A stretch of DNA of 64,000 bases from Gemmatimonadota bacterium (GTDB lineage: Bacteria; JAAXHH01): contig JAPPBT010000018.1 of NCBI GenBank assembly GCA_026702745.1, positions 32,259-96,258 on the forward strand. The letters are read 5' to 3'. Position numbers and translations under genes: made by a program. This document shows positions 9,204 to 55,122 of the stretch, in pieces (position 1 is the first letter of the stretch; each line of letters starts with the position of its first letter). The notes beneath the pieces are model-generated. The model worked only from the letters and a program-made list of their open reading frames with translations. It was not told the origin of the DNA and ran no database searches.

Positions 9204-9215
9204 GGGGGATTCCTT

Positions 9216-17225: not shown

Positions 17226-17339
17226 GGAGTCACCTCTAAAATCTGTTCTCGAGTGCCGATACAATCCAACTTTTTCCGACTAATCAAGTTACAAGTGTAC
17301 GAATCTATTGTACATACCTTTATGTCAAAGGAGGGAGAG

Positions 17340-17597: not shown

Positions 17598-17771
17598 TAC
17601 CTTGACGCCGGTCACCTGATCTCCTATACTCCACCGGATGCTTCGACGAGTCCCTCCCTGCCCATCCTGCGGAGGACAACTGCGCCACGTCCGGGGCGCC
17701 CGGTATAGCTGCACGTCCTGCCGGGAAGATTACGGCCTGTTCCGAAAACGCGCTCCGTACACGGGTTTGCA

Positions 17772-21899: not shown

Positions 21900-21943
21900 A
21901 CTAGCCCCCTAAATCACCTTCTTTAGAAATGTAACGTCGAAAC

Positions 21944-21961
21944 GATGTGTATATTGTGTCA
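21944..21961 (-). promoter_or_regulatory. Candidate NrdR box (ACACAATATACACA) and TTGACA -35 element between nrdR and nrdJ
   Basis: Ten consecutive positions match the NrdR-box consensus acaCwAtATaTwGtgt; the right half deviates. Confidence 0.25.
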
Positions 21962-22013
21962 ACAAAAAATACCTGATCCCGCAAAACGCAGACCAGGTAC
22001 CCAAATACCTGGA

Positions 22014-22505: not shown

Positions 22506-22553
22506 CTGCGGCGGATCTCCGATTGTAATTGATTGATAATTTAAGAATTAAGA

Positions 22554-22602
22554 ATCACTAGGTATAGTGGTGTTCAGACACGTAGCAAACAAGATATTGT
22601 AT
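22554..22602 (-). promoter_or_regulatory. Two candidate NrdR-box-like AT-rich imperfect palindromes (cactaggtatagtg and acaagatattgt), ~33 bp apart, upstream of nrdR
   Basis: Spacing of about three helical turns is typical of tandem NrdR boxes; sequence match to consensus is partial. Confidence 0.25.
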
Positions 22603-22679
22603 TATTTGCGAACAGGCAAGAGTCTTTTGAAACTTTTTTTGATTTGTCTAACAGAAGAATCTCATGACCCATTGCAATA

Positions 22680-22720
22680 AAACACCCCGCAACGGATTAC
22701 GCCGCGGGGTGTTTTGATTA
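22680..22720 (-). terminator. Rho-independent terminator hairpin (ACACCCCGC...GCGGGGTGT) flanked by A/T runs on both sides (bidirectional)
   Basis: 9-bp GC-rich stem, followed by TTTTGATT on the plus strand and TTTTATTG on the minus strand; sits just 3' of the OMP gene. Confidence 0.55.
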
Positions 22721-22760
22721 ACCATTCTAATGTACAAAGCCGGAAATTCAATTTGTGACG

Positions 22761-23321
22761 CTATGGACTGAACACAATAGACAAGGTGATCGGCATCCAC
22801 TTGTGCTTCACGTCCGTCATTGCGTGATTGTATCGCGCATCGAGAGCCACGCCAATCGACGGATTTATGGGAATATGAACACCGCCACCTATCGTAAAAC
22901 TTAAAGCACTCTCGGAGTTACTGATAGATACGCCTCCTCTGGAAATTTCCGCTTTAGCACGTGTCAATCCTATTCCTCCATGCCCATATACACTTACGGT
23001 GGAAGAAGAGGAATGCAGCATAACTCCGAGGTTCGCTCCGGTAAGATTCGTTTTTCCACTCACCCCGGGGGCAAGCACGTCTTCTTCTGGCTTGTATTGG
23101 CTATAATGACCTTCCAATACCGCATGCAAGCGCTGATAAACCGGCAAGGATACTCCGCCGCGAATCGCCGGTCCATTCTTTGCTCCCTCGGCATCTATGG
23201 GAAGACTCAGTCCGCCTCCTACAATAAACGATGGCGTAGTCTCCTGGGCATGAACGGTTTTCTGAGCGGATATCGACACGAGCAAAAACGCAGCCAGCAG
23301 GTAAACTGCTACTTTTCGCAT
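22761..23321 (-). CDS. Outer-membrane beta-barrel protein (OmpA-like barrel / OmpW-like), low-GC gene
   Basis: Start at M38 after AAGGAG SD. Signal peptide MRKVAVYLLAAFLLVSISAQKTVHAQ; alternating hydrophobic beta-strand pattern; C-terminal aromatic end (...TLSIVFSP). Confidence 0.6.
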   Translation of the reverse strand: MRKVAVYLLAAFLLVSISAQKTVHAQETTPSFIVGGGLSLPIDAEGAKNGPAIRGGVSLPVYQRLHAVLEGHYSQYKPEEDVLAPGVSGKTNLTGANLGVMLHSSSSTVSVYGHGGIGLTRAKAEISRGGVSISNSESALSFTIGGGVHIPINPSIGVALDARYNHAMTDVKHKWMPITLSIVFSP

Positions 23322-23442
23322 GATACTGCTCCTTATAGGAAAAGGATACAGAAAGTACCGTTGTAACAAGGATATTTCATTAAATGATAATACACTTCGA
23401 CGTGTCAATGTTTTTCTATGGGAATATTCCATTAATTAGCAC

Positions 23443-25878
23443 CTACTCCATCCGCAACGACTCGACCGGGTTCGCGGCAGCGGCCCGCACGGCCTGGAAG
23501 CTGACGGTGAGCAGGGCGACCGCCATGGCGAGAGCGCCTGCGAGAACGAAGGTGGTCCAATCCAGGTCGACGCGGTAGGCGAAACCTTCCAGCCAGGCGT
23601 TCATCGCGAAATAGGCGACTGGCCAAGCCACCACGAGGGCCGCGATCACGAGCCGGAAGTACTCTCGAGACAACAGCGCGACGAGACCGGAGGTAGAAGC
23701 GCCGAGGACCTTGCGGACCCCGATCTCCTTCCTGCGCCTTTCCGCGGTGAAGGAGGACAGCCCGACGAGCCCGAGGCAGGCAATAATCACGGCCAGCACG
23801 GAAAAACTGATGAAGATCCTTCCGAACCGCTGTTCGGCATCATATAGGCGCGCGAAGGTGTCTTCTACGAAAAAGTACTCGAATGCCCAATCAGGATTTA
23901 CTTCATGCCATGCCTCTTCGATTGCCGATAGCCCTTCCGACATGCGACCTGCATCGATTTTGATCATGGCGTAACCGCCCGGATAGTTCGGAAACAGCAC
24001 CAGCGGTTCGATGGGTTCGCGTAAGGTGGCATAGTGGAAATCCCTGACCACGCCTACGATCGACGGCCGTAATTCACCTCGCTCATCGGAATCCGTAATC
24101 AGTTCCTGCAGCCCTTCGATCTCCTTACCCAACGCCTCGCCGGCGGATGCATAGCCAAGCCGGTCAACGGCCGCTTCGTTGACTACGACCGCTCCCGTCG
24201 CTGTCCAGTCGCCGGGGAACGCGGAATCGAAATTGCGGCCCGCCACCAGTTCGATGCCGAAAATCCCGATGAAATCATCGTCCACCCAGGCCTGGTTCAT
24301 ATCGATCATCGATGATTCGTCCTGGCCCCGTCCGCGCGCCTTGATCGGCGCCGCGGCGTTCTTGTGCCCTGGAAGCAGGAAATTCATCGAGACGTTCGTC
24401 ACCGCAGGTATCTCCTTCAGCCGTGCTTTGTAGACGCTGGATCTCACGACAACCGGCGCGAAGGTCTGAGGCACCGCGACGACCTGGTCGGAATTGAGCC
24501 CCATGTTTCGCGCGCGTATGAAATCGAGTTGGCTGTAGACCACGCCGGTGCAGATGATGAGGGCGATCGAAATCACAAACTGGCCCACGACCAGGACCCG
24601 GCGGATGGCCGCGTTTCCGGCACCTGTGGAGCGCAGGCCGCTCAGTGCCTGGACCGGTGCGAGCCCGGACAGGTAAAGGGCCGGATAGCTGCCCGAGACG
24701 AAACCCACGACGGCGCCGATCGCCACGACGGCGCCCAGGGCGAACCAGGCGGTTTCCGCATTCAGGGACAGGGATTTGCCCGTGAGCAGGTTGAACCACG
24801 GCAGACTCAACAGGGCAAGCAGGAGGGCGACGCTGACCGCCAGCCCGGTCATGAGCATGGACTCGCTGATGAACTGCCGGATCACCTGGCCCCTGGCCGC
24901 GCCGAAGGTCTTTCGCAGGCCGATCTCCCCGGCCCTTCCCGCGGAACGCGCGGTGGCCAGGTTCATGAAGTTGATGCACGCGATGAGGATGATGAACACG
25001 GCAATGCAGCCGAAAAGATAGACGTACCGGATATCGCTGTTCGGTGTCAGTTCCCGCTCGAGATGAGAGTGAAGATGGATATCCGTGACCGGCTGCAGCC
25101 TGAAGGCCAATGTCGACGATACACCATCATATTGGTCGCCGACGTACTTTTCCACGAAGGCGGGCAGCCTGGCTTCCAGTTCATCGGGATCGCTGCCCTC
25201 GCGGAGCAGGACATAGCCGTACGACTTTCGCCAGTCCCACACGTCGGCCGGTTTATCCGCGTAGTGCTCCTGGATCCGGAACGCCGCGAGGATGTCGAAT
25301 CCGAGGTGCGTGTTGGCGGGCAGGTCCCGCATGACGCCGGTCACCTCGAAATGGAAGGACCCCTCGGCATCCAGGATCTTGCCCATGGGATCTTCGTCGC
25401 CGAAGTATTTCCGGGCAATGGACTCCGACAGCACGACTTTGTCGATACCGGCCAGGGCCGTCCGCTGATCGCCGGCGATCAGCGGCACATCGAAGACTTT
25501 GAAGACCGACGAGTCGGCCAGGTAGAAGTTTCGTTCGTAGAATCCCCGGTCCCCGTACTTGATCATCCAGGCGTTTCCGGGCGGGACGAAGCGCACCATG
25601 TCTTCCACTTCGGGGAAGTCTTCGCGCATGAACTTGACCGTGGGCGTCATGACTTCGGCGGTTCGGATCACCTGGTCGCGGTCGCGCTCTTCCGAGATTA
25701 CCCGGTAGATACGGTCCGCCTTTTCATGGAACTGGTCATAGCTCAACTCGTCCCGGATATAGAGCAGGATGAGGAGGGCGCACGCGATCCCGAGCGCCAG
25801 GCTCATCACGTTGATGGCCGAGTAACCCTTCTCGCGGTTCAGATGGCGCACGGCCACCGTCAGGTAGTTGCGGAACAT
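23443..25878 (-). CDS. ADOP-family permease (MacB-like periplasmic domain + duplicated FtsX), paralog 1
   Basis: 811 aa; N-terminal TM after MFRNYLTVAVRHLNREKGYSAINV; two FtsX-type 4-TM modules; C-terminus ...NPVESLRME. Confidence 0.85.
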   Translation of the reverse strand: MFRNYLTVAVRHLNREKGYSAINVMSLALGIACALLILLYIRDELSYDQFHEKADRIYRVISEERDRDQVIRTAEVMTPTVKFMREDFPEVEDMVRFVPPGNAWMIKYGDRGFYERNFYLADSSVFKVFDVPLIAGDQRTALAGIDKVVLSESIARKYFGDEDPMGKILDAEGSFHFEVTGVMRDLPANTHLGFDILAAFRIQEHYADKPADVWDWRKSYGYVLLREGSDPDELEARLPAFVEKYVGDQYDGVSSTLAFRLQPVTDIHLHSHLERELTPNSDIRYVYLFGCIAVFIILIACINFMNLATARSAGRAGEIGLRKTFGAARGQVIRQFISESMLMTGLAVSVALLLALLSLPWFNLLTGKSLSLNAETAWFALGAVVAIGAVVGFVSGSYPALYLSGLAPVQALSGLRSTGAGNAAIRRVLVVGQFVISIALIICTGVVYSQLDFIRARNMGLNSDQVVAVPQTFAPVVVRSSVYKARLKEIPAVTNVSMNFLLPGHKNAAAPIKARGRGQDESSMIDMNQAWVDDDFIGIFGIELVAGRNFDSAFPGDWTATGAVVVNEAAVDRLGYASAGEALGKEIEGLQELITDSDERGELRPSIVGVVRDFHYATLREPIEPLVLFPNYPGGYAMIKIDAGRMSEGLSAIEEAWHEVNPDWAFEYFFVEDTFARLYDAEQRFGRIFISFSVLAVIIACLGLVGLSSFTAERRRKEIGVRKVLGASTSGLVALLSREYFRLVIAALVVAWPVAYFAMNAWLEGFAYRVDLDWTTFVLAGALAMAVALLTVSFQAVRAAAANPVESLRME

Positions 25879-28383: not shown

Positions 28384-30828
28384 CTACTCAGTCCGCAGGG
28401 ACTCGATCGGGTTGGCGGTGGCCGCCCGGACGGCCTGGTAACTCACCGTCAGCAGGGCGATCGCCATGGCGAGGACGCCGGCGAGGACGAAGGTCGTCCA
28501 GCCCAGGTCGACGCGGTAGGCGAAGTTTTCGAGCCAGTTGTTCATCACGAGGAAGGCGGCCGGCCAGGCGAAGACGTTGGCCACGATTACGAGCCGGACG
28601 AATTCGTTGGACAGGAGCCGGAACAGTTTCGGCGTGGAAGCGCCCAGGACCTTGCGCACACCGATTTCCTTCGTGCGCCGTTCGGCCGTAAAAGACGCGA
28701 GTCCGAAGAGACCCAGGCACGCGATGAGGACGGCGAGCACGGCAAAACTGACGAATACCTGGCCGAATCGCTGCTCGGCGTCGTAAAGGCGCGCGAAGTT
28801 GTCTTCCACGAAGAAGTACTCGAAGGCGAACTCCGGGTTGACCTCATGCCAGGTTTCCTCGATTGCGGCGAGCCCTTCAGCCATGAATTCCGGCTTGATC
28901 TTGACGACGACGTGACCGCCCTGAAAGTCGGCGAACAGGACCAGGGGGGCTATGGGCTGGTGCAAGGACGCGAAATGGAAATCCTTTACGACCCCGACGA
29001 TCCGGCGCAGTTGAACGCCTTCCTCGTTCCATCCCTGCCGCAGCTCTCTCATCCAGTTCACTTCCTTGCCCACGGCATCTTCCGGTGATTCGAATCCGAG
29101 CCTCGTTACGGCGGCCTCGTTCAGCACAGCCCCGCCGCCCGCGGTCTCCCAGCCCCAGTCGCTGACGAAGGAGGGATCGAAGTAACGGCCCGTGACCACT
29201 TCGATGCCCAGCGTCTCCAGAAAATCCTCATCCGTCCAGGCCTGGTTCATGTCGATCTTCGCAAAGTCACCGTCGCCCGGCCGCTGTAACGTAATCGGTA
29301 TCACGGCGTTCCTGTGGCCGGGAAGTATATAGGTGGAGGTCGCGTTGGTTACATAGGGACTATCCTTCACGCGCTGTTTGTAGATCCTGGCCGTCTCCTG
29401 GACCGGATCGAAAGTCAGCGGTACGGCGACGACCTGGTCCGTGTTCAGTCCCATGTTTCTCTGCTGGATGAATTCAAGCTGGTTGTACACGACCCCGGTG
29501 CATATGATCAGGGCGATCGAAATGACGAATTGGCTGACGACCAGGATCCTGCGCATTCCCGCGGTACCGGAACCCGACGCAAGCGTCCCCTTCAGGGTCT
29601 CGATGGGCGCCAGGCCGGACAGGTAGAACGCGGGATAGCTCCCCGAAACGCACCCTACCACGACACCGATGACCACCACCGCGCCAAGGGCGAACAACGT
29701 GGTGCCCGGATCCACGGCCAGCGACTTGCCGGTGAGCAGGTTGAACCAGGGCAGACTGACCACCGCCAGAAGCAGGGCGAGGCATACGGCCATTCCGCTC
29801 ATGAGCAGCGATTCGATCAGAAACTGCCGGGCCATCTGGGCGCGGACCGCGCCGAAGACCTTTCGAAGGCCGATTTCCCTGGCCCGGCCCGCGGACCGGG
29901 CGGTCGCCAGGTTCATGAAGTTGATGCAGGCGATGACGATGATGAAAACCGCGATGGCGGCAAAGAGATAGACGTATCTGACGTCGCTGTTGGGCGTCAG
30001 TTCCCGTTCCAGGCGGGAGTGCAGGTGGATATCCGTCACCGGCTGCAACCTGTACGTCAGGGATGCATCGCCGCCTTCGTAGCGATTCCCGAGGTGCTTC
30101 TCCACGAAAGCGGGCAGCTTGGCTTCCAGTTCGGCCGGGTCGCTGCCGTCCCGAAGCACGATATAGCTATGGGCCGTGCGCCAGCCCCACTCGTCGACTT
30201 TGGTGTTGGAGTAGGCTTCCTGGATCTTGAAGGACGCGAGTATATCGAATCCGAGGTGCGTGTTGGAAGGCATGTCGGGCATGATGCCCGTCACCTCGAG
30301 GTGAAAAGTGCCCTCGGCGTCCAGGATCCTGCCCATGGGGTCCTCGTCGCCGAAGTACTTTCGGGCCATGGATTCGGACAGCACGATCTTGTCGTTTCCG
30401 GTGAGCGCCGTCTTCGGATTGCCGGTCAGCAGGGGGACGTCGAACACGTTAAAAACGGTCGTATCGGCCAGATAGAAATTCCGTTCGTAGAACCCCTTGT
30501 CCCCGTACTTGACCATCCAGGCATTCCCGGGCGGGACGAGGCGGACCATGTCCTCTATTTCCGGGAAGTCTTCCCTCATGTACCAGACTGTAGGGATCAG
30601 AACGTCCGCATTTCGAACGACCTCGCCTCCCTGCCGGTATTCGGCGGTTACGCGGAATGTTCGGTCCGCGCGATCGTAGAACCGGTCATAGCTCAATTCA
30701 TCGCGGATGTAGAGCAGGATGAGCAGGCAGCAGGCGATTCCGAGCGCCAGGCTCATGACGTTGATGAATGAATAACCCTTGTGCCGGTTAAAGTGACGGA
30801 TCGCTACCGTGAAGTAGTTGCTGAACAT
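28384..30828 (-). CDS. ADOP-family permease, paralog 3
   Basis: 814 aa, same architecture; C-terminus ...NPIESLRTE. Confidence 0.85.
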   Translation of the reverse strand: MFSNYFTVAIRHFNRHKGYSFINVMSLALGIACCLLILLYIRDELSYDRFYDRADRTFRVTAEYRQGGEVVRNADVLIPTVWYMREDFPEIEDMVRLVPPGNAWMVKYGDKGFYERNFYLADTTVFNVFDVPLLTGNPKTALTGNDKIVLSESMARKYFGDEDPMGRILDAEGTFHLEVTGIMPDMPSNTHLGFDILASFKIQEAYSNTKVDEWGWRTAHSYIVLRDGSDPAELEAKLPAFVEKHLGNRYEGGDASLTYRLQPVTDIHLHSRLERELTPNSDVRYVYLFAAIAVFIIVIACINFMNLATARSAGRAREIGLRKVFGAVRAQMARQFLIESLLMSGMAVCLALLLAVVSLPWFNLLTGKSLAVDPGTTLFALGAVVVIGVVVGCVSGSYPAFYLSGLAPIETLKGTLASGSGTAGMRRILVVSQFVISIALIICTGVVYNQLEFIQQRNMGLNTDQVVAVPLTFDPVQETARIYKQRVKDSPYVTNATSTYILPGHRNAVIPITLQRPGDGDFAKIDMNQAWTDEDFLETLGIEVVTGRYFDPSFVSDWGWETAGGGAVLNEAAVTRLGFESPEDAVGKEVNWMRELRQGWNEEGVQLRRIVGVVKDFHFASLHQPIAPLVLFADFQGGHVVVKIKPEFMAEGLAAIEETWHEVNPEFAFEYFFVEDNFARLYDAEQRFGQVFVSFAVLAVLIACLGLFGLASFTAERRTKEIGVRKVLGASTPKLFRLLSNEFVRLVIVANVFAWPAAFLVMNNWLENFAYRVDLGWTTFVLAGVLAMAIALLTVSYQAVRAATANPIESLRTE

Positions 30829-31004
30829 GGGATGCCTTCAGTCAGTCTATCGGCCAGTCGTCGGGACAATCGACAGGTTACCGTTTTCTCACAATTCGGG
30901 ATGCATCAGCGCCTTATTCCCTTAACCCTGGCAGAAGTACTACTGTATAATAACACTGTGGCGCACGATCTACACCCATGTTTCCACCCTTGTGTAAGTT
31001 TACC

Positions 31005-32339
31005 ATGACCGATCTCTTCTCCGACCAGGCCGAAAAGCAACTCCAGCGGGAAGCGCCGCTGGCCTCCCGCATGCGGCCGGATTCGCTGGAGGGTTTCCTG
31101 GGCCAGCAGGGGCTGGTCGGCCGGGGACGCCTCCTGAACGAGTCCATCGAGCGGGACACGCCCTTCTCGATGATCCTGTGGGGTCCGCCGGGATCGGGCA
31201 AGACCACCCTCGCCTTCATCATCGCCCGCTCCACGGATTCGCATTTCGTCGCGTTGAGCGCCGTGAGCGCCGGCGTGAAGGACCTTCACAAGGCAACCGC
31301 CGAGGCCCGCGACCGGCTGGGCATGCACGGCAAGCGGACCATCCTGTTCATCGACGAGATCCATCGCTTCAACAAGCTGCAGCAGGACGCCGTGCTGCCG
31401 ACCGTGGAGAACGGCACGCTGACCCTCATCGGCGCGACCACGGAGAACCCGTCTTTCGAGGTCAACAACGCCCTGCTGTCCCGCTGCCGGGTACTCCGCC
31501 TGGAGCCGCTTTCGGAGGAGGACCTGCAACGGATCGTCCGCAACGCGCTGGAGGACGAAGAACGCGGTCTGGGCGGGAGGAACATCGAGTTGGACGACGA
31601 GGCGGCCGCGCACCTGGCTGCCGTGGCCGGCGGCGACGCCAGGATCGCCCTGAATACCCTCGAAGTGGCGGCCATGACCACGCCGCGCGGCGACGGGAAC
31701 CGGATCCGGCTTACCGTGAAGGAGATCGACGAAGCGCTGCAGCACCGGTCACCGCAGTACGACAAGGGCGGGGACTGGCACTTCGACGCCATTTCGGCCC
31801 TGCACAAGAGCGTGCGGGACTCCGATCCGGACGGCGCCCTCTACTGGCTCGCCCGGATGCTCATCGCCGGCGACGATCCGCTCTACATCGCGCGCCGGAT
31901 CATCCGCATGTCCGTGGAGGACATCGGACTGGCCGACCCCTTCGCCCTGACCCTGTCCACCTCGGCCCAGCAGGCCGTCCATTTCGTGGGCCAGCCCGAA
32001 GGCGACCTGATGCTCGCCCACGCGGTGGTGTACCTGGCTACCGCGCCGAAGAGCAACGCGGTCTACGCGGCCTTTTCGAAGGCGCGGCAGGACGCGGAAC
32101 AGACGAGCGACGAGCCCGTGCCCATGCACCTGCGCAACGCGCCGACCCGCCTGATGAAGGAAATGGGCCACGGCAAGGGATACAAGTACGCCCACGATTA
32201 CGACGGGGCGTCCGTGGACCAGGAGCATCTGCCCGAGTCCATCAGGGGGCACCGCTACTACGAACCCACCGACCGGGGCCGCGAAGAGAAGATCCGCGCG
32301 TGGATGGAGAAGATGCGGAAGGTCAGGGACGGAGGATGA
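31005..32339 (+). CDS. rarA: Replication-associated recombination protein A (AAA+ ATPase)
   Basis: Walker A GPPGSGKTTLA, Walker B ILFIDEIHRFNK, sensor/arginine finger region and MgsA C-terminal helical domain; start at M10 (MTDLFS...). Confidence 0.85.
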   Translation: MTDLFSDQAEKQLQREAPLASRMRPDSLEGFLGQQGLVGRGRLLNESIERDTPFSMILWGPPGSGKTTLAFIIARSTDSHFVALSAVSAGVKDLHKATAEARDRLGMHGKRTILFIDEIHRFNKLQQDAVLPTVENGTLTLIGATTENPSFEVNNALLSRCRVLRLEPLSEEDLQRIVRNALEDEERGLGGRNIELDDEAAAHLAAVAGGDARIALNTLEVAAMTTPRGDGNRIRLTVKEIDEALQHRSPQYDKGGDWHFDAISALHKSVRDSDPDGALYWLARMLIAGDDPLYIARRIIRMSVEDIGLADPFALTLSTSAQQAVHFVGQPEGDLMLAHAVVYLATAPKSNAVYAAFSKARQDAEQTSDEPVPMHLRNAPTRLMKEMGHGKGYKYAHDYDGASVDQEHLPESIRGHRYYEPTDRGREEKIRAWMEKMRKVRDGG

Positions 32340-32348
32340 CTTGCCGTT

Positions 32349-32924
32349 TTACGCAGTCGCCTTGCGGTAGCAGTAGTCGAAGAGCAGTTCCCACTCGCGC
32401 TGCTGGATGCCGCGGCAGAGATCGCCGGCCGGGACGTCGCCCACGTTGGCGCCTTCACACAGATCGATGAAAGCGTAAGGATCCCAGGATGACTGGGACA
32501 TGAGGTACGCCGCCTCGCCGGGCAGGTTGTCCGTACCGGAGGCGATGGTCGCCGCCTCGTCTCTCAACTCTGGATATACGTCGTGGTCGCCGACGCGGCC
32601 GAACCAGTACTTCCCGTTGGGATAATCCGGTTCGCGGCGGTGCATGATCCCGTGCCAGTAGCTGCCCGTGGGCGTGGTGATTTGCTGGCTGATGGTATGC
32701 GAGGTGACCAGGAAGTCGTGGTAAAGCCAAAGAGCGGACCGGCATCCCTCGGCCATCGACCGGTCATTGATGCGGTCCGGCGCGAAGGCCTCGTCCAGGT
32801 CCAGGGCTTCCAGGTCCGCTTTCACCGAACTGTTTTCCTCGCCCGGATCCAGCGCCATGATGCGGGGTGTCTTGAGCAGTGCCGCGAAAACGGGTCCGTA
32901 GGCTGCGGGGTCGAAGGCAGACAT
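32349..32924 (-). CDS. Hypothetical protein
   Basis: 191-aa ORF with coding-like composition, convergent with rarA (9-nt gap); no recognisable family. Confidence 0.45.
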   Translation of the reverse strand: MSAFDPAAYGPVFAALLKTPRIMALDPGEENSSVKADLEALDLDEAFAPDRINDRSMAEGCRSALWLYHDFLVTSHTISQQITTPTGSYWHGIMHRREPDYPNGKYWFGRVGDHDVYPELRDEAATIASGTDNLPGEAAYLMSQSSWDPYAFIDLCEGANVGDVPAGDLCRGIQQREWELLFDYCYRKATA

Positions 32925-35429: not shown

Positions 35430-36569
35430 ATGGATATTCACTCGAAAGAATACGCCCACCATTCCCGGCTCCTGGGACGGACCGTAACCTTTCGCCGCAG
35501 TACGGCCAAGTACCTGCTGATCGCCTTCGTAGCCGCGGGACTGCTCCATAGCCTATCCCTGATGTTTCTGTTGGCCACCGGCCTGCTCGAAGACCGGAAC
35601 ATGATCGAACTCACGCTCGCGCCCTACGAGCGCCTGGAGCAGCTCGAACAGGCCTACATGGAAATGCAGAATCCGCCGACCCTGGTCGACGTGCCGGAAG
35701 AAGCCCGCGTGGAGGAACCACCGGACGATCCCGACGCCGACGTGGCGGACAAGAACGCCGTCGCGAGCGACCTGATGGAGGATACGGAGCTGCCCGAGGG
35801 GCTGGCTTATTCCGAGGGCGACCTGGAGATCAGGACGATGGAGGATTCCGAGGAAGAGGAAGATCAACAGCACGACCCCTTCGCCGGCGGCGTCCCGCTC
35901 ACCCCACGGGAGGGCGGCATCGAGGATTTCAATGAGCTGGTAGACCCGCCGATGTGGACCTCGGACATGATTATCCGGCCCGAATTCCGGGGCAGCGGCG
36001 GACGCACGGGCCGCGGCGAAGGCGGGATGGAAGGCGAAATCATCGCTTCGGCGCCCCGGCCTACCGGACCGGAAGCCCCGGTCTTCATCCCCCAGGACGA
36101 CCTGAACGAACTGGCCCAGGAATCCCGCCAACCCACGTATGAGCGGCACCGGCGTTTCGGATTTGGCTTCGGGAGTACCGGGCCGCGGGTGCCCAGAACG
36201 GACAACCGACACACCTCGGTCAGGGACTACGGCGATTTCTCGCTCAGCACCTACGCCTGGGACTACGCGCCTTACCTGTACATCCTCCGCGAAAGGGTGA
36301 GACGGCGCTGGTTCGCCCCCGAGGCCTTCAACCTCGGCCTGGTGAGCGGGCGGGTCATCATACGGTTCAAGATCATGCCCGACGGCGCGCTGCGCGACCT
36401 CGAAGTCCTGTCCTACCGCGACAACGACATCCCCTACCAGTCCCTCGTGGCCTCGAGCCGCAACGCCATCGAGTCGGCCAGCCCCTTCCCGCCCCTTCCC
36501 GCCGATTTCCTCCATCCATTCCTGGAGATCACCGGCACCTTCTACTACCAGATCCTGCGTGCGAGGTAA
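35430..36569 (+). CDS. TonB-family C-terminal-domain protein (energy transducer-like), membrane-anchored with acidic/Pro-rich linker
   Basis: N-terminal TM (YLLIAFVAAGLLHSLSLMFLLATGLL), long acidic low-complexity region, and a TonB_C-like terminal domain (VIIRFKIMPDGALRDLEVLSYRDN...SPFPPLP). Confidence 0.55.
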   Translation: MDIHSKEYAHHSRLLGRTVTFRRSTAKYLLIAFVAAGLLHSLSLMFLLATGLLEDRNMIELTLAPYERLEQLEQAYMEMQNPPTLVDVPEEARVEEPPDDPDADVADKNAVASDLMEDTELPEGLAYSEGDLEIRTMEDSEEEEDQQHDPFAGGVPLTPREGGIEDFNELVDPPMWTSDMIIRPEFRGSGGRTGRGEGGMEGEIIASAPRPTGPEAPVFIPQDDLNELAQESRQPTYERHRRFGFGFGSTGPRVPRTDNRHTSVRDYGDFSLSTYAWDYAPYLYILRERVRRRWFAPEAFNLGLVSGRVIIRFKIMPDGALRDLEVLSYRDNDIPYQSLVASSRNAIESASPFPPLPADFLHPFLEITGTFYYQILRAR

Positions 36570-37490
36570 ATGAGGTCAACGTTGCAAGCGCAAATCGGTA
36601 GACTGGTCGATTCGAAGGCGTTTCAGCACACCGTACTCGGGGTGATCACGGCGGCCGCCATCCTGGTGGGGCTGGAAACCTCGCGGGAAATGGTAGCCCG
36701 GTACGGCGACTGGCTGCACCGGCTCGACCAGTTGGTCCTGCTGTTCTTCATCGTGGAAGCCCTGCTGAAGATGGCGCGCCACGGCCGTCACTGGTACCGG
36801 TATTTCGGCGACCGCTGGAACGTGTTCGATTTCCTCATCGTGGTGGCCTGCCTGATGCCCGCGGGCGGACAGTACGCGGCGGTGCTGCGCCTGGCCCGGG
36901 TGCTGCGGGCGCTGCGGCTGGTGACCGCGGTGCCGAAACTGCAGCTCCTGGTCAACTCGCTGCTCAAGTCGGTCACGTCGCTGGGATACGTCGGCCTGCT
37001 GCTGGCCGTGCTGTTCTACGTCTACGCGGTGCTGGGCGTCTACCTCTTCCGCGGCAACGACCCCGTGCACTTCCAGGACCTGGCGACGGCGCTGCTGACC
37101 CTCTTCCGGGTCGTGACCCTGGAGGACTGGACCGATGTGATGTATATCCAGATGTACGGCAGCGACGCCTATCCGAATTACGCCGATTTCGCCCAGGCCC
37201 ACCTCCGCGAAGCCTCCCGGGCCATGCCCCTCCTCGGCGCCGCATTCTTCGTTTCCTTCGTGATGCTCGGCACCATGATCATGCTGAACCTCTTCATCGG
37301 GGTCATCATCAACTCCATGTCCGAAGCCCAGGCCGACCGGGAGTCGGAGGAAAGGCGCAGGCACCTGGAGCGGGACGGCCGGATCAGTGTGGGGGATGAA
37401 ATCGGGTTGATCGAGGAAGAGATCCAGAAACTGTCGAGACGGCTCAAGTCTCTGCGCGGGTGGGCGGATGCGGACAGCGGGGATGGGTGA
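36570..37490 (+). CDS. Bacterial voltage-gated cation channel (NaChBac/BacNaV family, single 6-TM domain) with TLEDWTD selectivity filter
   Basis: S4 voltage sensor RLARVLRALRLVTAVPKL; pore helix and filter FRVVTLEDWTDVMY; C-terminal coiled coil; ATG follows the upstream gene's stop directly. Confidence 0.75.
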   Translation: MRSTLQAQIGRLVDSKAFQHTVLGVITAAAILVGLETSREMVARYGDWLHRLDQLVLLFFIVEALLKMARHGRHWYRYFGDRWNVFDFLIVVACLMPAGGQYAAVLRLARVLRALRLVTAVPKLQLLVNSLLKSVTSLGYVGLLLAVLFYVYAVLGVYLFRGNDPVHFQDLATALLTLFRVVTLEDWTDVMYIQMYGSDAYPNYADFAQAHLREASRAMPLLGAAFFVSFVMLGTMIMLNLFIGVIINSMSEAQADRESEERRRHLERDGRISVGDEIGLIEEEIQKLSRRLKSLRGWADADSGDG

Positions 37491-37493
37491 CTT

Positions 37494-37844
37494 TCAGATC
37501 TGCTCGCCGCCTTCCGGTCCGTAGAAGATGACCCAGGTGGTCATCGACTCGCCGAAATCAAGGAACCGGTGCTCGACGCCCGCGGGCACAAAGAAGAAAT
37601 CCCCGGCCTCGAATGGCACGACCTCTCCCCCCATTGCGAATTTCCCCTTCCCTTCGACGATCACGTAGCACTCGTCTCGGCTGTGGGGCTTCTGATCGTC
37701 CACATCACGGGGGATGTACAGCTCGATCTGCAGTTCGCCGCGCTCAAGGGCGACGTGGAACCGATCCCCGTTCGGAGCAGGAATCTTCGCGGCGACTTCC
37801 GCGGGGGTGATGCGCTTGCAGGTGTGTCTTTGCATGTTTCCCAT
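37494..37844 (-). CDS. Cupin-domain protein
   Basis: 116 aa with a beta-rich cupin-like sequence (GDFFFVPAGVEHRF). Confidence 0.6.
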   Translation of the reverse strand: MGNMQRHTCKRITPAEVAAKIPAPNGDRFHVALERGELQIELYIPRDVDDQKPHSRDECYVIVEGKGKFAMGGEVVPFEAGDFFFVPAGVEHRFLDFGESMTTWVIFYGPEGGEQI

Positions 37845-37869
37845 CCACGTGGATCAGATCGACTTAAGC

Positions 37870-39036
37870 TCAGGTCAAGAAGGCTTGCATAATCTGTTTC
37901 TTCGCACTGTAACCTCGTCTGGTTCGTTCGACAAGATCCATTTTCCTCAGATAATTCAAGTCTCGACTGATCATTTTCTGTGAAGCATTCGCGTATTCCC
38001 TGGCGACCCTGGGGCTGACTTCACCGATCTGCGACCTGGGAACGGGTTGATCCTGTTCCGAGAGAGCCAGGACCAGATTCCTACGACGTTTCGCAGCTGC
38101 ACCGGTCATACCCTGGAATTGCTCATGCACGAAATTGATCCAGGATATTTGAAGATGTTGACTTCTGATCGATGCAAGCTGTTCTGTTAGGCCTTCAGAG
38201 AAACCTCGAATCGCATATTCCATGAATTGGTCCATTTTCCCTCCAGACTGTGATGCCCTGTCAAGTTGTCTGGCATATTCCGTTCTGGTCTGGTTATAGA
38301 AATTGCTGGGAAGCAATGTCGCAGGGATTGGAATATCCGCTTCAATGAGTATTCTGAACTCGATCAGCCTGGCTGTTCTTCCGTTCCCGTCTCCAAAAGG
38401 ATGAATCCAAGCAAAGTAAAGGTGGGCGGCGATCGCTTTGACTAAGCCAATCGCGACTCTACTGTCTTCGTTTGTGTCGTTGTTAGACGAATTCAACCAT
38501 TTGCATAGTTGTTCAAGCAAGTAATTGCAATCTTCCGCCTGAACCGCGCGATACCTGCCCACACCAACGGAGTGCTTACGTATCTCGCCTGGTACCGTTT
38601 CCTCGTCCGGCAACTCGAGACCTTTTAACACCACCTTGTTATGCCGGCATATTTCCTTTGTTGACCACGGTGGAAGTTTACTTCGACTACGACGTGACAA
38701 CATTCTTCTTATTTCCGCCAGGATATTGTCGATCTCCTGTTTCAAGTACTCCTTTGACTCCGGAAGTCTCAGTTTTCCTTCCATATGCGCACGTACATCT
38801 TCTTCCGAAAGGGTGTTGCCTTCGATCGCGGTTGTACCAAGTACGCCCCTGGCCAGGTACACCTGGTACAGTTCATGCGCCGTCTGTCTCATCAACGGAA
38901 TTCCTGTCAGTTGCTCGCATTTAGCCTTGATCTCACCAAGTAACATCCAGATCCTTGGTGGGGCGTGAACCAAATAGTCCGTGTCGAAGCTTCGCAGCCA
39001 CGGATGGGTAGTTTCAAATCGTCTCATTGTTGACAC
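37870..39036 (-). CDS. Fic-family protein (AMPylase-type, class II with N-terminal inhibitory motif) plus C-terminal winged-helix, low-GC
   Basis: Canonical Fic motif HPFGDGNGRTARL; inhibitory (S/T)xxxE(G/N) motif TTAIEGN near the N-terminus; gene is markedly AT-richer than its flanks. Confidence 0.85.
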   Translation of the reverse strand: MSTMRRFETTHPWLRSFDTDYLVHAPPRIWMLLGEIKAKCEQLTGIPLMRQTAHELYQVYLARGVLGTTAIEGNTLSEEDVRAHMEGKLRLPESKEYLKQEIDNILAEIRRMLSRRSRSKLPPWSTKEICRHNKVVLKGLELPDEETVPGEIRKHSVGVGRYRAVQAEDCNYLLEQLCKWLNSSNNDTNEDSRVAIGLVKAIAAHLYFAWIHPFGDGNGRTARLIEFRILIEADIPIPATLLPSNFYNQTRTEYARQLDRASQSGGKMDQFMEYAIRGFSEGLTEQLASIRSQHLQISWINFVHEQFQGMTGAAAKRRRNLVLALSEQDQPVPRSQIGEVSPRVAREYANASQKMISRDLNYLRKMDLVERTRRGYSAKKQIMQAFLT

Positions 39037-39199
39037 CTTTTTTGTCCATCAAGTTGTCCTATATAAAATATTGAAGTTGTTATATATAGGTTATTTTAGA
39101 TATACATATTGTCCCTTGGTTCAGTCTATAGTAAGAGCACATTGGTATAACTGTCAACTCCTTTGTATCTTGACATACTGCTTCTTTAGGGCAGAATAA

Positions 39200-39217
39200 G
39201 CAGATTGCAGAATCTGC
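39200..39217. promoter_or_regulatory. Hairpin/inverted repeat GCAGATT-gcag-AATCTGC in the AT-rich divergent region between the Fic and threonine dehydratase genes
   Basis: Perfect 7-bp inverted repeat with 4-nt spacer, 70 bp upstream of the dehydratase start. Confidence 0.3.
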
Positions 39218-39288
39218 CAAGTTCACCTAGCGTTCTCTAACTTCAGGGACGTGAGTACACGACCTGTATTCATCAACTACCGCACCCC

Positions 39289-40272
39289 ATGCCCACCCAC
39301 CCCACGCTGGCCGATATCCAAAAGGCACACCGTTTCCTCAACCAACACCTGTCTCCGACGCCCATGTACCGGTCCGCCGCGTTCAGCGAGGCCCTGGGGC
39401 TGGAACTCCACATAAAGTACGAGAATTTCCAGCCGATCCGCTCCTTCAAGGTGAGGGGCGGGTTGTACACCATGTCCCTGCTCGACGATGCGCAGCGCGC
39501 CAGGGGCGTCACCACGGCGTCCACCGGCAACCATGGCCAGGGCATTGCCTACGGCGGAGGCGTGATGGGCGTTCCCGTCACGGTGGTCGTGCCCCACGGA
39601 ACACCCGAGGTGAAGAGCGACGCCATCCGCCGCCTCGGCGCCGAGCTGGTCGTCCACGGGGAAACGATTGCCGACGGATTCGCGCGGTCCCGGGAGATCG
39701 CGGAAGAGACCGGCATGGTGTACATCGAAGACGGTGAGGACTTCGGCCTCATGGCGGGCGCGGGCACCATCGGCCTGGAGATCGTGGAGGATCTGCCGGA
39801 CGTGGACGCGGTGGTGCTGCCCGTGGGCGGCGGCAACCTGATCGCGGGTGTGGGCGCGGCCATCAAGGCCACCCAACCGGACGTTCGTCTCATCGGCGTC
39901 CAGGCGCACAACGCGCCGTCGGTTTACCGGTCCTGGCAGGAAGGCCGGACCGTGACCACGGCGACCTGCGACACCTTCGCCGGGGGACTGGCGACGACCT
40001 ATCCAGGCGGCCTGGCCTTCGACGTCCTGAAAGACCGGGTCGACGAAATGCATCTCGTCACCGAGGAAGAGATGAAGCAGGCGATCCCCGTCGTCCTGGA
40101 ACACACCGGGTTCATCGCGGAAGGTGCGGCCGCGGCGGTGTTCGCCCTGTGCATGCGCGAGGCGTCGTCGTGGCGGGGCCAGCGCGTCGCCGCGCTGTTC
40201 AGCGGCGGCAATCTCGGGATGGACGGCGTGCGCGATATGATCCGGAGCTTGAACGAACAGCGGCCTGCTTAG
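39289..40272 (+). CDS. Threonine/serine dehydratase (PLP-dependent, fold type II)
   Basis: PLP-lysine motif SFKVRG and glycine-rich loop VLPVGGGNLIAG. Confidence 0.8.
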   Translation: MPTHPTLADIQKAHRFLNQHLSPTPMYRSAAFSEALGLELHIKYENFQPIRSFKVRGGLYTMSLLDDAQRARGVTTASTGNHGQGIAYGGGVMGVPVTVVVPHGTPEVKSDAIRRLGAELVVHGETIADGFARSREIAEETGMVYIEDGEDFGLMAGAGTIGLEIVEDLPDVDAVVLPVGGGNLIAGVGAAIKATQPDVRLIGVQAHNAPSVYRSWQEGRTVTTATCDTFAGGLATTYPGGLAFDVLKDRVDEMHLVTEEEMKQAIPVVLEHTGFIAEGAAAAVFALCMREASSWRGQRVAALFSGGNLGMDGVRDMIRSLNEQRPA

Positions 40273-52478: not shown

Positions 52479-54248
52479 TCATTCCTCCTCGTAAATCGCC
52501 TCGCCGCGGCTCAGTCGCAGCGCGATATGAGCGGTCTGGTTGAGCGCCCGCTGAGTGGGGGCGTGGGCGGCGAGATACCGGGCCGTGGCGATCAGCACGT
52601 GGTCGGCCTCGGCGCGTCCTTTCAGTTCCTCGTACTGGCGAATGCCCGCCTCGAGCATCTGGAAGCTGTGGAACTCGGCATCCTCCCGAAGCAGCGAGAT
52701 CGCGAGCGTTCGGAACAGCCGGTCCACCGGGTGTCCGTCGGCCAGGTAACGGTAGACCAGCCTGGCGGCCGGCTCCACCCGCTGCTGCGTGTCCAGTTCG
52801 GTCAGAAACGTGTCGAGTATCTCGTCGGTCTCGCCGGCCAGTTCGGCCGTGGCCTTATCGCCCGGCAACCGCGCGGGCGGCACGTTGAGGAAACGGTCCA
52901 GGTACACGGCCATGGCACCGTGAAAGACGCCGCGGATCAGCTCCGGGGAACCCGTCCGCTTCAGGGCCTGGTGCAGGGCGTTCGCGTAGGTGAAGGTGTG
53001 CAGCACCGTGATCCAGTCGTTGAACTCGTTCTGCGTGTGGAACCGGGCGATGCGGAGCGCCGCGGCGTAGGTGACCGCCTGGCTGAGCTGCAGCGGCGTC
53101 ATGCCTTCGCGCAGGAGGGCCAGCATGGTGTCCACTGTGGCCTGGGGATCGTCCCCCAGGATCACTTCGGCCAGTTCGCCGGGGCCGTCCCACGCGTATC
53201 CATTGGATGTCGATGCCAGCGCACCGGGTAACTCGGCATTGGCCCCACGCAGGATGGCGGCCAGGTCGACGGGATGGCGCCAGGCGTTTCGTTCCTCGCT
53301 GCGCGCCGCGGCGCAAAGCTGACCGACCGTACTGGGCAGCACTTCATCGGCGTGCTCCCAGCCGATGTGGTCCAGCAGTTCCGTGGACTTGTTGATGAAA
53401 TCCGCGACGTGCCCGCCGTCCAGGAACACGCGATCCGTGGCGGCGCTCATCATCATGTCCACCAGCAGCGCAGGTTCACTGCCCATGGACACGGCCGTAA
53501 GCAGGCACCGCGTAGCGCCTTCGGTGTCGCGCACCTCGACGAAGCGGCGGAACCAGCGCTTCAACTGCTCGAACGAGAGGTTCTCCGTATCCAGGGGCTG
53601 CAGGTCGAACCTCGGCGGCTGTCCGTTGCTGTCCCGGGCGACATGCGTCAGTCCCTGGTATAGCGGCAGGATCTGCTCGTCCCGGGGCAGATAGCTGCAC
53701 AGGTTCGTCATCGCGGCGAGGATGGTCAGGCCGGGACCCCAACCGGACGATCGGTACCGCACGCCATAACGGCCGCCGGTCTCGGCGATATCCTTGTAGG
53801 ACACCCCCGATTTCAGCAGGGCGATCACGGCCTTGGCATTGACCAGCGAGATGTTCTGCTCCAGGCCTTCTCTCAGGCGGTTGCGCCAGTACTCCGCGTC
53901 GCCCGACTGGTCCCGCGAACCCGAAACCCAAACGTCCCCGTTCCGGGTCTCGACCGCGTACACCGGCACGTCGTCCGCGAAGAGATCGAAGGTGCAACCG
54001 CTCTCCAGGTCGAAATCCGCGTGGTGCCAGTGGCAGGTCAGAATGCCGTCCTTGATCGTGCCGCGGTGCAGTGGGAAGCCCATGTGGGGACAGCGGTTGT
54101 CCACGGCGTGCACCTGCCCGTCACCGTGGTGGAACACGGCGATCGGGCCGTCGTGGCCGTTGACGACGATGCTCCCCTTTTCCTTCAGTTCGTCCATCGA
54201 TGCGACCCGGATCGGATCGCGCAGGGCTGTTGTCGGGGTGCTGTTCAT
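52479..54248 (-). CDS. Rieske [2Fe-2S]-domain protein fused to a ~470-aa domain of unknown function
   Basis: Rieske motifs CPHMG...CHWHH (CxH-x17-CxxH); start at M6 after AGGAG SD; the C-terminal domain is unrecognised. Confidence 0.7.
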   Translation of the reverse strand: MNSTPTTALRDPIRVASMDELKEKGSIVVNGHDGPIAVFHHGDGQVHAVDNRCPHMGFPLHRGTIKDGILTCHWHHADFDLESGCTFDLFADDVPVYAVETRNGDVWVSGSRDQSGDAEYWRNRLREGLEQNISLVNAKAVIALLKSGVSYKDIAETGGRYGVRYRSSGWGPGLTILAAMTNLCSYLPRDEQILPLYQGLTHVARDSNGQPPRFDLQPLDTENLSFEQLKRWFRRFVEVRDTEGATRCLLTAVSMGSEPALLVDMMMSAATDRVFLDGGHVADFINKSTELLDHIGWEHADEVLPSTVGQLCAAARSEERNAWRHPVDLAAILRGANAELPGALASTSNGYAWDGPGELAEVILGDDPQATVDTMLALLREGMTPLQLSQAVTYAAALRIARFHTQNEFNDWITVLHTFTYANALHQALKRTGSPELIRGVFHGAMAVYLDRFLNVPPARLPGDKATAELAGETDEILDTFLTELDTQQRVEPAARLVYRYLADGHPVDRLFRTLAISLLREDAEFHSFQMLEAGIRQYEELKGRAEADHVLIATARYLAAHAPTQRALNQTAHIALRLSRGEAIYEEE

Positions 54249-54294
54249 GATGATACTCCTCATACTGCTTTATCGATGATCGTGCATTGTATCT

Positions 54295-54331
54295 GAATGG
54301 AATATACGTGTTACCATTCAATATATGTAAC
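54295..54331. promoter_or_regulatory. Overlapping inverted repeats GAATGG-N13-CCATTC and GTTAC-N12-GTAAC in a ~130-nt AT-rich divergent region (also 10-bp palindrome TGCACGTGCA at 54421-54430)
   Basis: Seen in sequence; positioned between the Rieske operon start and the divergent regulator start, so likely operators. Confidence 0.3.
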
Positions 54332-54495
54332 CCAATCCAATAAATCAATATTATTATTTATATTATATATTTAATTTTTATTGTTCCATATTTGGGATAG
54401 CATGTTACAATAGATAGAGATGCACGTGCAGTAGGCACCGGCACCGCATTGGTTCTGCATTGGATAATCAGCCGCTTCGTTCGCGGAGAAGGAAC

Positions 54496-55122
54496 ATGCC
54501 ACACACTGAAGGCACCACCCGCCGTCAGATCCTGGAATTGCTCAAACGCAAGGGCGAAATGACAGCCGGTCAACTCGCCAGGGAGATCGGGATCACTTCG
54601 ATGGGCGTTCGCCAGCACCTCAGCGGACTGGAGCGCGACGACCTGGTCGAGACGCGAGTCGTACGGCAGGACCGGGGCAGGCCCGCCCACTATTTCGTCC
54701 TGACGGATGCCGCTGAGCACCTGTTCCCGGTACGGTACGGCCAACTCGCGGTGGAACTGCTCGAACAGATCGCCGAAACCGACGGACCGGAGAAGGTCGA
54801 CAGCCTCTTCGCCTTGCGCACGGAACGGCTTGAAGCGGAATACAAACAACAGATGGCCGGGAAACCCGTCTCGGAACAGGTGCGCGTTCTCGCAGAAATC
54901 CGGGACCGGGAGGGATACATGGCCGAATCCCACGCGGACGACGATGAGTACATCCTGGTGGAGCATCACTGCCCGATCTACGAGATAGCGCGCCGTTTCC
55001 CGAAGGTCTGCCAGTTCGAACAGGAATTGTTCGAGCGTACGCTCGATGCCGGGGTGCGCAGGGACGAGCACAAGATAGCCGGAGACGACCACTGCCGGTA
55101 CCTGGTACGGAAACGAGACTGA
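54496..55122 (+). CDS. Winged-HTH (ArsR/SufR-like) transcriptional regulator with Cys/His-rich C-terminal sensing domain
   Basis: ArsR-type HTH (RRQILELLKRKGEMTAGQLAREIGITSMGVRQHLSGLERDDLV); C-terminal HHCP-x10-C...DHC cysteines; SD GGAGAAGGAA before ATG at 54496. Confidence 0.6.
   Translation: MPHTEGTTRRQILELLKRKGEMTAGQLAREIGITSMGVRQHLSGLERDDLVETRVVRQDRGRPAHYFVLTDAAEHLFPVRYGQLAVELLEQIAETDGPEKVDSLFALRTERLEAEYKQQMAGKPVSEQVRVLAEIRDREGYMAESHADDDEYILVEHHCPIYEIARRFPKVCQFEQELFERTLDAGVRRDEHKIAGDDHCRYLVRKRD

Follow-up and report, generated by a model that had tools for sequence, protein, structure and literature searches.

A low-GC Fic gene of Gemmatimonadota, probably a long-inherited resident of its locus and predicted to encode a cis-inhibited, winged-helix AMPylase

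This study concerns a Fic gene of a Gemmatimonadota bacterium, the sole gene within positions 37845-39290 of a 64,000-nucleotide stretch of contig JAPPBT010000018.1. The whole of this stretch is referred to as the window, and coordinates are those of the window unless another locus or record is named. Our results suggest that the gene encodes a class II Fic protein, inhibited in cis and fitted with a winged helix, that it is an old resident passed on by inheritance, and that its mechanism can be modelled on that of its studied relatives; taken jointly, we consider this reading quite probable. The original prediction had interpreted the conspicuously low GC content of the gene as a sign of recent horizontal acquisition. 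That interpretation is unsupported because the gene is found at the same junction, with an equally low GC content, in nine other species-level genomes.

A scan in which each species was represented by one genome identified nine carriers (L001 to L009; three titled Gemmatimonadetes metagenome-assembled genomes, four deposited as single chromosomes) whose Fic proteins are 78-95% identical, and these together with the window gene make up the ten orthologues compared below. Eight of the nine carriers keep, on all of their available sequence, the gene order of the window: TrpS, a TonB-like protein, an ion channel, a cupin (minus strand), Fic (minus strand), a pyridoxal phosphate (PLP)-dependent dehydratase-like gene (PALP, plus strand), a thiamine diphosphate (ThDP) enzyme and a flavin adenine dinucleotide (FAD) oxidase. 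The exception is L007, in which the PALP side (5659-9822 of that locus) has been swapped for a DUF4143/AAA_14 ATPase and an ImuB-DnaE2 mutagenesis cassette, and an IS200-type transposase (11685-12134) has its place between cupin and ion channel. A protein identity of 78-95% speaks against separate insertions of near-identical elements. The comparison of synteny was anchored on the TonB-C-like protein (35430-36569 in the window), a lineage marker with a long, highly acidic linker (runs of Glu and Asp) that can be followed into distant relatives, down to 40% identity.

The low GC content itself was confirmed. With a GC of 0.489 and a GC at third codon positions (GC3) of 0.523, Fic stands well below the neighbouring genes (0.61-0.67 and 0.78-0.89, respectively), in a window whose 300-bp segments average 0.621 GC (standard deviation 0.054), and a check of compositional deviation placed the 1.5-kb segment beginning at 37751 as the top tetranucleotide outlier of the 64 kb (z=5.6). 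The spacer upstream of the gene (39028-39288) is likewise AT-rich, at 0.335-0.44 GC in 200-bp segments, in agreement with the AT-rich promoter region of about 250 bp that had been described. The same composition recurs in the nine carriers, where Fic has a GC of 0.49-0.52 and a GC3 of 0.52-0.59 beside flanks of about 0.62-0.63 GC; at four-fold degenerate sites the figures are 0.50-0.57 for Fic versus 0.92 for the flanking genes. The synonymous divergence (dS) of Fic from the window copy ranges from 0.34 to about 2.9 (0.13-0.6 for the flanks) and is near or past saturation. Pairwise ratios of non-synonymous to synonymous divergence (dN/dS) among the ten orthologues are only 0.05-0.07, and the protein is under strong purifying selection.

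A gene ameliorating toward its host should gain GC at synonymous sites. Synonymous third-position changes, polarised by parsimony in three trios of a sister pair plus an outgroup, instead ran to 73 from GC to AT and 42 from AT to GC in Fic, which, when counted per site, implies an equilibrium GC3 of about 0.44; for the flanking genes the same calculation yields about 0.7-0.8. By a rough two-state estimate, the regime of the flanks, acting over about 0.5 synonymous substitutions per site per lineage (window versus L004), would close about 60% of the GC3 gap. Unlike this expectation, the gap is equal in every lineage, and in qualitative terms the composition of Fic is not converging on that of the host. 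Fic also has a lower GC content than its flanks in 25 of 27 distant loci (mean difference 0.06). Low GC is a stable, inherited trait of the gene or its family and cannot date its arrival.

The borders of the locus do not resemble those of a recent island either. As had been stated at the outset, no integrase or tRNA lies at the boundary: no tRNA occurs anywhere in the window, no integrase was found among the genes called between 25.9 and 50.6 kb (about 12 kb either way of Fic), and no direct repeats bracketing Fic were found. A recent island would be expected to show an integrase or transposase together with a tRNA and direct repeats, a set that was not found here, and to be absent from close relatives at an intact site, where nine relatives in fact carry Fic.

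The contexts of relatives that lack Fic were recovered through the neighbouring genes. In one of these, L050, a 2.25-Mb contig reads TrpS, TonB-like protein, ion channel, cupin, a 456-bp gap, PALP and ThDP enzyme, with no Fic. Host trees (neighbour-joining, 300 bootstraps) built on the left flank (1036 amino acids) and on the right flank (878 amino acids) both put L050 in one group with L004 and L006, which carry Fic, and do so with 100% bootstrap support. Since it is nested within genomes that carry the gene, L050 has lost Fic, and the same placement led us to reject it as a representative of the state before insertion. No Fic remnant was detected by tblastn in the 456-bp gap (11716-12171 of L050), which contains five copies of a 17-bp tandem repeat, catgcaaacggcaaagt, and in one segment is homologous to the 530 bp that separate Fic from cupin in L009; the gap does not resemble the Fic promoter regions of the other genomes. 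Judged by these repeats and homologies, the site was remodelled and not cleanly excised.

Further out, gene content around this junction differs from genome to genome. In L051, the branch immediately outside the carriers, the ion channel is followed by acyltransferases, and in L040, from the same sample, PALP directly follows SelB and the selenocysteine tRNA (tRNA-SeC). In L044 (2199-7418) the order is tRNA-SeC (by selB), integrase fragment, HEPN AbiU2 gene, several small open reading frames (ORFs) and, directly after these, the PALP orthologue. The sequences compared indicate that the junction upstream of PALP is evidently variable. The islet of L044 is linked to tRNA-SeC and sits on the same side of PALP as Fic does in the window. 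In distant relatives, represented by four loci, TrpS, the TonB-like protein (40-61% identical to that of the window) and PALP are found, with or without an EamA-AsnC or glycosyltransferase block, and the ion channel, cupin and Fic genes are missing there.

Outside the clade, Fic homologues reach an identity of at most 55% and are scattered over Chloroflexota, Methylomirabilota, Acidobacteriota, Verrucomicrobiota, Deltaproteobacteria and other groups. Temperate Gordonia phages encode full-length homologues (39% identity; ten records) beside tyrosine integrases; in Gordonia phage Mcklovin (L057; MN428055.1, record positions 31096-32358) the homologue, complete with its winged helix-turn-helix (wHTH), adjoins two tyrosine integrase genes. 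The search for carriage on plasmids returned distant matches only, at no more than 28% identity. We favour an old horizontal gain because the distant relatives lack Fic while homologues of about 50% identity are scattered over phyla and phages. The simplest history would comprise one such gain at the base of the clade, into the cupin-PALP junction and now shared by at least ten species-level lineages, followed by vertical descent and one loss, in L050. The foreign origin proposed in the original prediction thus remains plausible, given relatives without Fic and outside homologues at 39-55% identity; what has to be given up is its recency.

A recent arrival whose low GC is a donor composition not yet ameliorated could draw on the strong compositional deviation and on the mobility of the family elsewhere, temperate phages included. 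We nevertheless consider it very unlikely, given an orthologous and equally low-GC locus in nine species-level genomes with dS values near or past saturation, no excess of AT-to-GC changes, no integrase, tRNA or repeat boundary, and a sole Fic-less genome of this synteny that is nested among the carriers. Similarly low GC in orthologous loci and a Fic phylogeny that follows the host had been named beforehand as the pattern that recency could not accommodate, and this is largely the pattern found. In the Fic tree four groups each receive 100% bootstrap, namely A (window, L001, L002), B (L003, L005, L008), L004 with L006, and L007 with L009. The deep nodes are weak (33-58% support), and with nodes of this strength a strong conflict between Fic and host trees was not established.

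The lack of such conflict and the stable composition would also be expected of an ancestral vertical gene that was never transferred, was lost in other relatives and owes its low GC to functional constraint. This history is unlikely in our estimation. All four distant loci that run from TrpS and the TonB-like protein to PALP lack Fic, as well as the adjacent ion-channel and cupin genes; the nearest outside homologues, at about 50% identity, come from unrelated phyla and form no graded series within Gemmatimonadota; and a GC3 gap of 0.52 versus 0.78-0.89 goes far beyond what protein constraint would impose.

Within the old resident, the ten orthologues reveal an allelic mosaic. Hosts of groups A and B differ by 2-5% in their flank proteins, and their Fic proteins by 13%, with a Fic dS of 1.05-1.3. 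Sliding identity and segment matrices locate the divergence to codons 96-385 (37870..38742, minus strand), where nucleotide identity across A and B is 77-82%, versus 88-95% in codons 1-95; in codons 96-385 group B is 84-86% identical to L004 and L006. The fixed amino-acid differences between A and B are concentrated (19 of 22) in residues 96-188, a stretch that separates the inhibitory helix from the catalytic loop and contains the predicted flap hairpin described below. Positive selection behind the split was rejected, as dN/dS is unchanged (0.06-0.07) and dS is raised too. On these grounds the pattern resembles at least one replacement within the gene, in which the A lineage, to which the window belongs, received a diverged allele through homologous recombination; the breakpoint is close to codon 95. 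In the adjoining cupin gene (37494-37844), dS among close relatives is 0.35-0.42, versus 0.13-0.26 in other flanking genes, and the recombined tract may extend past the 3' end of Fic.

These observations bear on why the composition of the gene has stayed low. It is conceivable, although we would not rate it as probable, that the low GC of Fic is actively maintained at an equilibrium of its own (implied GC3 of about 0.44-0.55) through more than one synonymous substitution per site, and is not a leftover of the donor. One route would be selection for an AT-rich, poorly translated or silenced gene for a toxic enzyme, coupled to autorepression by the winged helix at TGTCAA/TTGACA sites; another would be the repeated import of alleles from an unsampled low-GC pool, at which the breakpoint near codon 95 hints. 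If this were true generally, as the 25 of 27 distant loci would allow, the atypical composition of Fic-type defence genes would reflect their function and say little about the time of transfer. A method that reads low GC as recent transfer would mis-date this gene (GC3 of 0.52 against about 0.85). With ten orthologues, one loss, two allele types and an invariant promoter palindrome, the locus offers a small natural series on how a potentially toxic AMPylase is kept.

The Fic patch is the most extreme low-GC patch of the window and not the sole one, and isolated low-GC genes recur in the genome. Five others (<0.52 GC) occur at 17101-17600, 21801-23600, 30701-31000, 54101-54600 and 61301-62600; they contain, among others, an HTH_3 (XRE-type) ORF (17136-17597, plus strand), an outer-membrane beta-barrel ORF with a GC3 of 0.45 (22761-23432, minus strand) and a coiled-coil ORF (61509-61919, minus strand). 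Around Fic, the genes between 25.9 and 50.6 kb are of housekeeping type: MacB-type permeases, MgsA, TrpS, the ion channel, the ThDP enzyme, LptE, SpoIID and AnmK. The cupin gene (37494..37844, minus strand; 116 amino acids, Pfam Cupin_2) begins 25 bp downstream of Fic. Its GC3 of 0.78 is host-like, it is present in L050 without Fic, and it is not part of the acquired unit. On the other side, divergent from Fic, lies PALP (39289..40272, plus strand; GC3 0.87), a threonine/serine dehydratase-like gene by its match to Pfam PALP (E=2e-78), which the NCBIfam threonine ammonia-lyase models match below their cut-offs.

The gene itself is intact. The Fic ORF spans 37870..39036 on the minus strand, with an alternative in-frame GTG start at 39036, but the start is likely the ATG at 39027, because homologues open with MR(R/T)(F/Y)E.THPW and an AGGTG lies 8 nt upstream. 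The resulting coding sequence (37870..39027, minus strand; 385 amino acids plus stop) is supported by the ORF, by Pfam Fic, by the PADLOC SoFic profile and by dN/dS. The Pfam family model for Fic (PF02661) scores 56.4 bits against a cut-off of 24 (E=5e-15). The active-site loop HPFGDGNGRTARL (38365..38403, minus strand; residues 209-221) includes the catalytic His209 and conforms to HxFx(D/E)GNGRxxR, which has been defined as the signature of AMPylation-competent Fic proteins (PMC3667792). It reads H209-P-F-G-D-G-N-G-R-T-A-R220 in the window protein; 63 aligned homologues show no variation at H209, P210, F211, D213, G214, N215, G216, R217, A219 and R220, and the ten orthologues none at any amino-acid position between 201 and 225. 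By this signature the gene encodes a Fic protein of the AMPylation-competent type.

The inhibitory-helix motif TTAIEGN that had been recognised in the original prediction is present at residues 65-71 (38815..38835, minus strand). It fits (S/T)xxxE(G/N), with E69 as the presumed inhibitory glutamate, and T65, A67, I68, E69, G70 and N71 are invariant in the 63 homologues. HMMER aligns it with TVAIEGN of Caenorhabditis elegans FIC-1, so that E69 occupies the column of FIC-1 Glu274; the mutant entry 5jj7 (E274G) has a Gly exactly there. The T65-TAI-E69-G70 segment lies within a predicted helix (residues 47-69) and 140 residues upstream of His209 in the same polypeptide. Because the inhibitory helix is N-terminal to the core and part of the same chain, the motifs place the window protein in class II as PMC3667792 defines it. 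AT-rich composition and the lack of a partner gene might also suggest a remnant, decaying or silenced, without current function. Such a view is scarcely credible for a 385-codon frame that is intact in all ten genomes, evolves at a dN/dS of 0.05-0.07 and has kept its catalytic and inhibitory motifs invariant.

An AlphaFold2 model built on the homologue alignment (mean predicted local distance difference test score, pLDDT, 87.7; predicted template modelling score, pTM, 0.83) supports the C-terminal winged helix that had been proposed. Helices at residues 310-323, 331-344 and 350-362 are followed by strands at 366-368 and 373-375, and this helix-helix-helix-strand-strand order corresponds to a winged helix at residues 310-375 of the model. 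The stretch as a whole (37873..38115, minus strand) has pLDDT values of 88-95 and contains a weak match to the ArsR/SmtB HTH at residues 345-373. In Foldseek the chain aligns over its full length (366-384 columns) with several structures of the Fic-wHTH type: 8cil (CbFic2 of Coxiella), 7xux (CccR of Yersinia), 4rgl (Dde_2494), 7cb8 (a Mycobacterium marinum Fic), and 3eqx and 3zcn (SoFic of Shewanella). The structures of FICD and FIC-1 match the Fic core only. A predicted beta-hairpin at residues 155-160 (38548..38565, minus strand; EE--EE in the DSSP assignment of the model) corresponds, by position, to the flap to which a role in target docking has been ascribed (PMC3667792). An N-terminal helix at residues 24-41 of the model and the promoter palindrome described below are suggestive, and only suggestive, of dimerisation and of binding to the protein's own promoter.

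The upstream region is conserved along with the gene. An alignment of the ten orthologous spacers defines a promoter region and an AT-rich leader of about 90 nt (39028..39175, minus strand), which L007 has kept despite its different upstream neighbour. At its distal end is the palindrome TGTCAA-N12-TTGACA (39152..39175, assigned to neither strand), which is invariant in 10/10 loci, unique in the window and matched in none of 100 shuffles. Its two halves can be read as -35-like hexamers placed back to back, one for Fic and one for the divergent PALP gene, with promoter-like matches TTGACA-18-TACTAT on the minus strand and TTGACA-16-CAGAAT on the plus strand; the -10-like box 18 nt downstream of the TTGACA hexamer is kept in 10/10 loci. 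A third copy, TGTCAA(C), lies next to the ribosome-binding site (39029..39035, minus strand; 9/10 loci) and is complementary to GTTGACA at 39152-39158. The leader also contains, at 39040-39075, GGACA-containing units of about 12 nt, of which there are two copies in most genomes, three in L006 and four in L004. These hexamers and units may be operator or translational-control sites. RNAalifold found as leader structure only the long-range GTTGACA/TGTCAAC pairing, in which the bases are invariant and show no covariation; a conserved RNA fold of the leader is thus unsupported. Because CccR binds palindromes and SoFic an AT-rich stretch of 100 bp at their own promoters, the TGTCAA/TTGACA sites may, by inference only, be operators to which the winged helix of this very protein binds.

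The hairpin to which the original prediction had drawn attention, GCAGATT-CTGC-AATCTGC with a 7-bp stem, is indeed present at 39200..39217 (minus strand), but it is perfect in the window genome alone. In the nine other loci the left arm varies without compensation and the right arm is fixed; the latter belongs to a conserved CAATCTGCTTATTCTGC that overlaps the -10-like CAGAAT of the plus-strand (PALP) promoter match. The hairpin was rejected as a regulatory structure, since its left arm is not conserved and the folding of the spacer does not exceed that of shuffles (z=0.26). A comparison of 37400-39500 with Rfam yielded nothing at E<=1, and no terminator-like site was found.

In a simplified view, an enzyme of this kind would work as follows. 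At rest, Glu69 would force ATP into a non-productive pose at the HPFGDGNGRTAR active site, which would repress AMP transfer and may leave de-AMPylation as the prevailing activity. A switch, brought about in relatives by dimerisation or DNA binding, would free His209 to AMPylate a Ser, Thr or Tyr residue on some cellular protein. Targets of the relatives are EF-Tu, FtsZ and histone H3, and in the bacterial ones among these AMPylation stops translation or cell division. Expression of a potentially toxic enzyme would be held low by the winged helix, which probably binds the AT-rich promoter and leader of its own gene.

As to the cellular role, a growth-arresting effector in phage defence, acting by abortive infection in the manner of SoFic-type systems, is suggested by analogy, and we give it a little less than an even chance. 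It draws on the PADLOC assignment, carriage by phages, the allelic mosaic, dispensability and the defence-type neighbours of distant homologues: of the three loci sampled, one has AIPR and CHAT nearby and another an Eco57I/MmeI-type methylase. EcSofic has been reported to be toxic and to protect against phages by abortive infection (PMC12249575; Millman et al. preprint). The gene could, with somewhat lower likelihood, be a domesticated, self-repressing housekeeping (de)AMPylase that tunes a core process, for example translation through EF-Tu, and is kept for normal physiology. Its stable place among housekeeping genes in ten genomes, the strong purifying selection, the conserved palindrome and repeated motifs upstream, and the constitutive de-AMPylase activity and own-promoter binding of SoFic would fit this well; a Methylomirabilis homologue likewise lies mostly among housekeeping genes, a nearby Trypco1-domain gene excepted. 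Fic is missing, though, from the sister lineages L050, L051/L040 and L044 as well as from the sampled distant relatives, and is therefore dispensable. The family also travels on temperate phages and lies beside AIPR, CHAT and restriction-modification genes, PADLOC assigns the protein to SoFic, and an allelic mosaic whose differences cluster in residues 96-188 resembles that of variable conflict genes.

Several points weigh against the joint reading of a cis-inhibited, winged-helix Fic protein that is an old resident and works like its relatives. Target, trigger and DNA site are taken from relatives that are only 15-25% identical, the score against the NCBIfam SoFic equivalog lies far below the cut-off, and the 25-bp gap to the cupin gene leaves no room for a downstream AS1-like antitoxin. 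The window neighbours are housekeeping genes with no defence island, and Fic is kept at one locus in 10/11 synteny-sharing genomes, which is steadier than usual for defence genes. On the side of descent, most of the compared genomes are metagenome-assembled, the neighbour-joining trees rest on few genes, Nei-Gojobori dS values above 1 are poorly estimated, and parsimony over-counts GC-to-AT changes on tip branches, a bias that affects the flanks likewise.

Winged-helix class II Fic enzymes number in the thousands and form a well-studied class. The window protein matches the PADLOC SoFic profile PDLC03963 (E=2e-55, in a table without a curated threshold) over residues 25-378, corresponding to profile positions 24-353 of 361, but it scores only 42.4 bits against the cut-off of 550 for the NCBIfam SoFic equivalog NF046030. 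The protein thus shares the SoFic architecture and belongs to the broad family, but with a score so far under the cut-off it is not an orthologue of S. oneidensis SoFic. In common with SoFic (Shewanella oneidensis SO_4266; PDB 3EQX, 3ZCN) and EcSofic it has the class II motif, HxFx(D/E)GNGRxxR, a C-terminal wHTH, a length of about 370-390 amino acids, a standalone gene, an end-to-end PADLOC match and a full-length fold alignment. Inhibition by a glutamate, E73, has been described for SoFic (PMC3667792). SoFic AMPylates switch I of EF-Tu, is a constitutive de-AMPylase and binds an AT-rich 100 bp 5' of its own start codon (bioRxiv 10.64898/2026.07.09.737422), and the window gene has a conserved AT-rich leader. 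The two proteins differ in that structural alignments yield only 15-18% identity and the sequence match is limited to residues 194-256; the window gene also lacks a downstream 47-aa AS1-like gene and lies outside any defence island here.

CccR of Yersinia pseudotuberculosis (7XUX) is likewise a class II Fic protein with a wHTH and a full-length fold match, and ranks third by sequence among the solved structures (E=1e-12, residues 56-305). It represses its own promoter through palindromic sites and AMPylates FtsZ (PMC9755527), and the window locus has an invariant palindrome at its promoter. CccR is, however, secreted by a type VI secretion system and AMPylates FtsZ Thr8 of Enterobacteriaceae; there is no secretion-system context at the window, and identity is about 18-20%. 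CbFic2 of Coxiella burnetii (8CIL) comes first among the Foldseek matches (E=2e-9, 366-384 aligned columns). It is a Fic protein with a C-terminal HTH, bifunctional in AMPylation and de-AMPylation, and controlled by dimerisation and by DNA binding (for the latter, PMC10628234). It is only 19% identical, however, and belongs to an intracellular pathogen in whose host it targets histone H3.

Of all solved structures, the eukaryotic FICD/HYPE and C. elegans FIC-1 (4U04, 5JJ6) match best by sequence (E=3e-14); their inhibitory helix, T(V/T)AIEGNTLS, is near-identical and their core superposes at a root-mean-square deviation of 2.8-4 A. By analogy, the Glu-dependent switching between AMPylation and de-AMPylation of these enzymes would be shared by the window protein. 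They differ as enzymes of the endoplasmic reticulum with tetratricopeptide repeat domains and no wHTH, and the match is confined to the Fic core (residues 34-277). Class I FicTA modules (VbhT/VbhA, EcFicT/A), toxic when de-repressed, have the catalytic fold and glutamate-based inhibition in common with the window protein, but their inhibitory helix comes from a separate small antitoxin, whereas that of the window gene is supplied in cis. No class I antitoxin or AS1-like partner was found in the 25-bp gap downstream or in the 260-bp upstream spacer, which has no ORF conserved across orthologues. A class I module was rejected, given the motif in cis, the lack of room and the lack of an adjacent small ORF. 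The domain that defines the wHTH class II Fic group (SoFic, CccR and CbFic2) is recovered at residues 310-381 by AlphaFold2 and Foldseek, and the window gene adds to this group a new lineage rather than a new mechanism.

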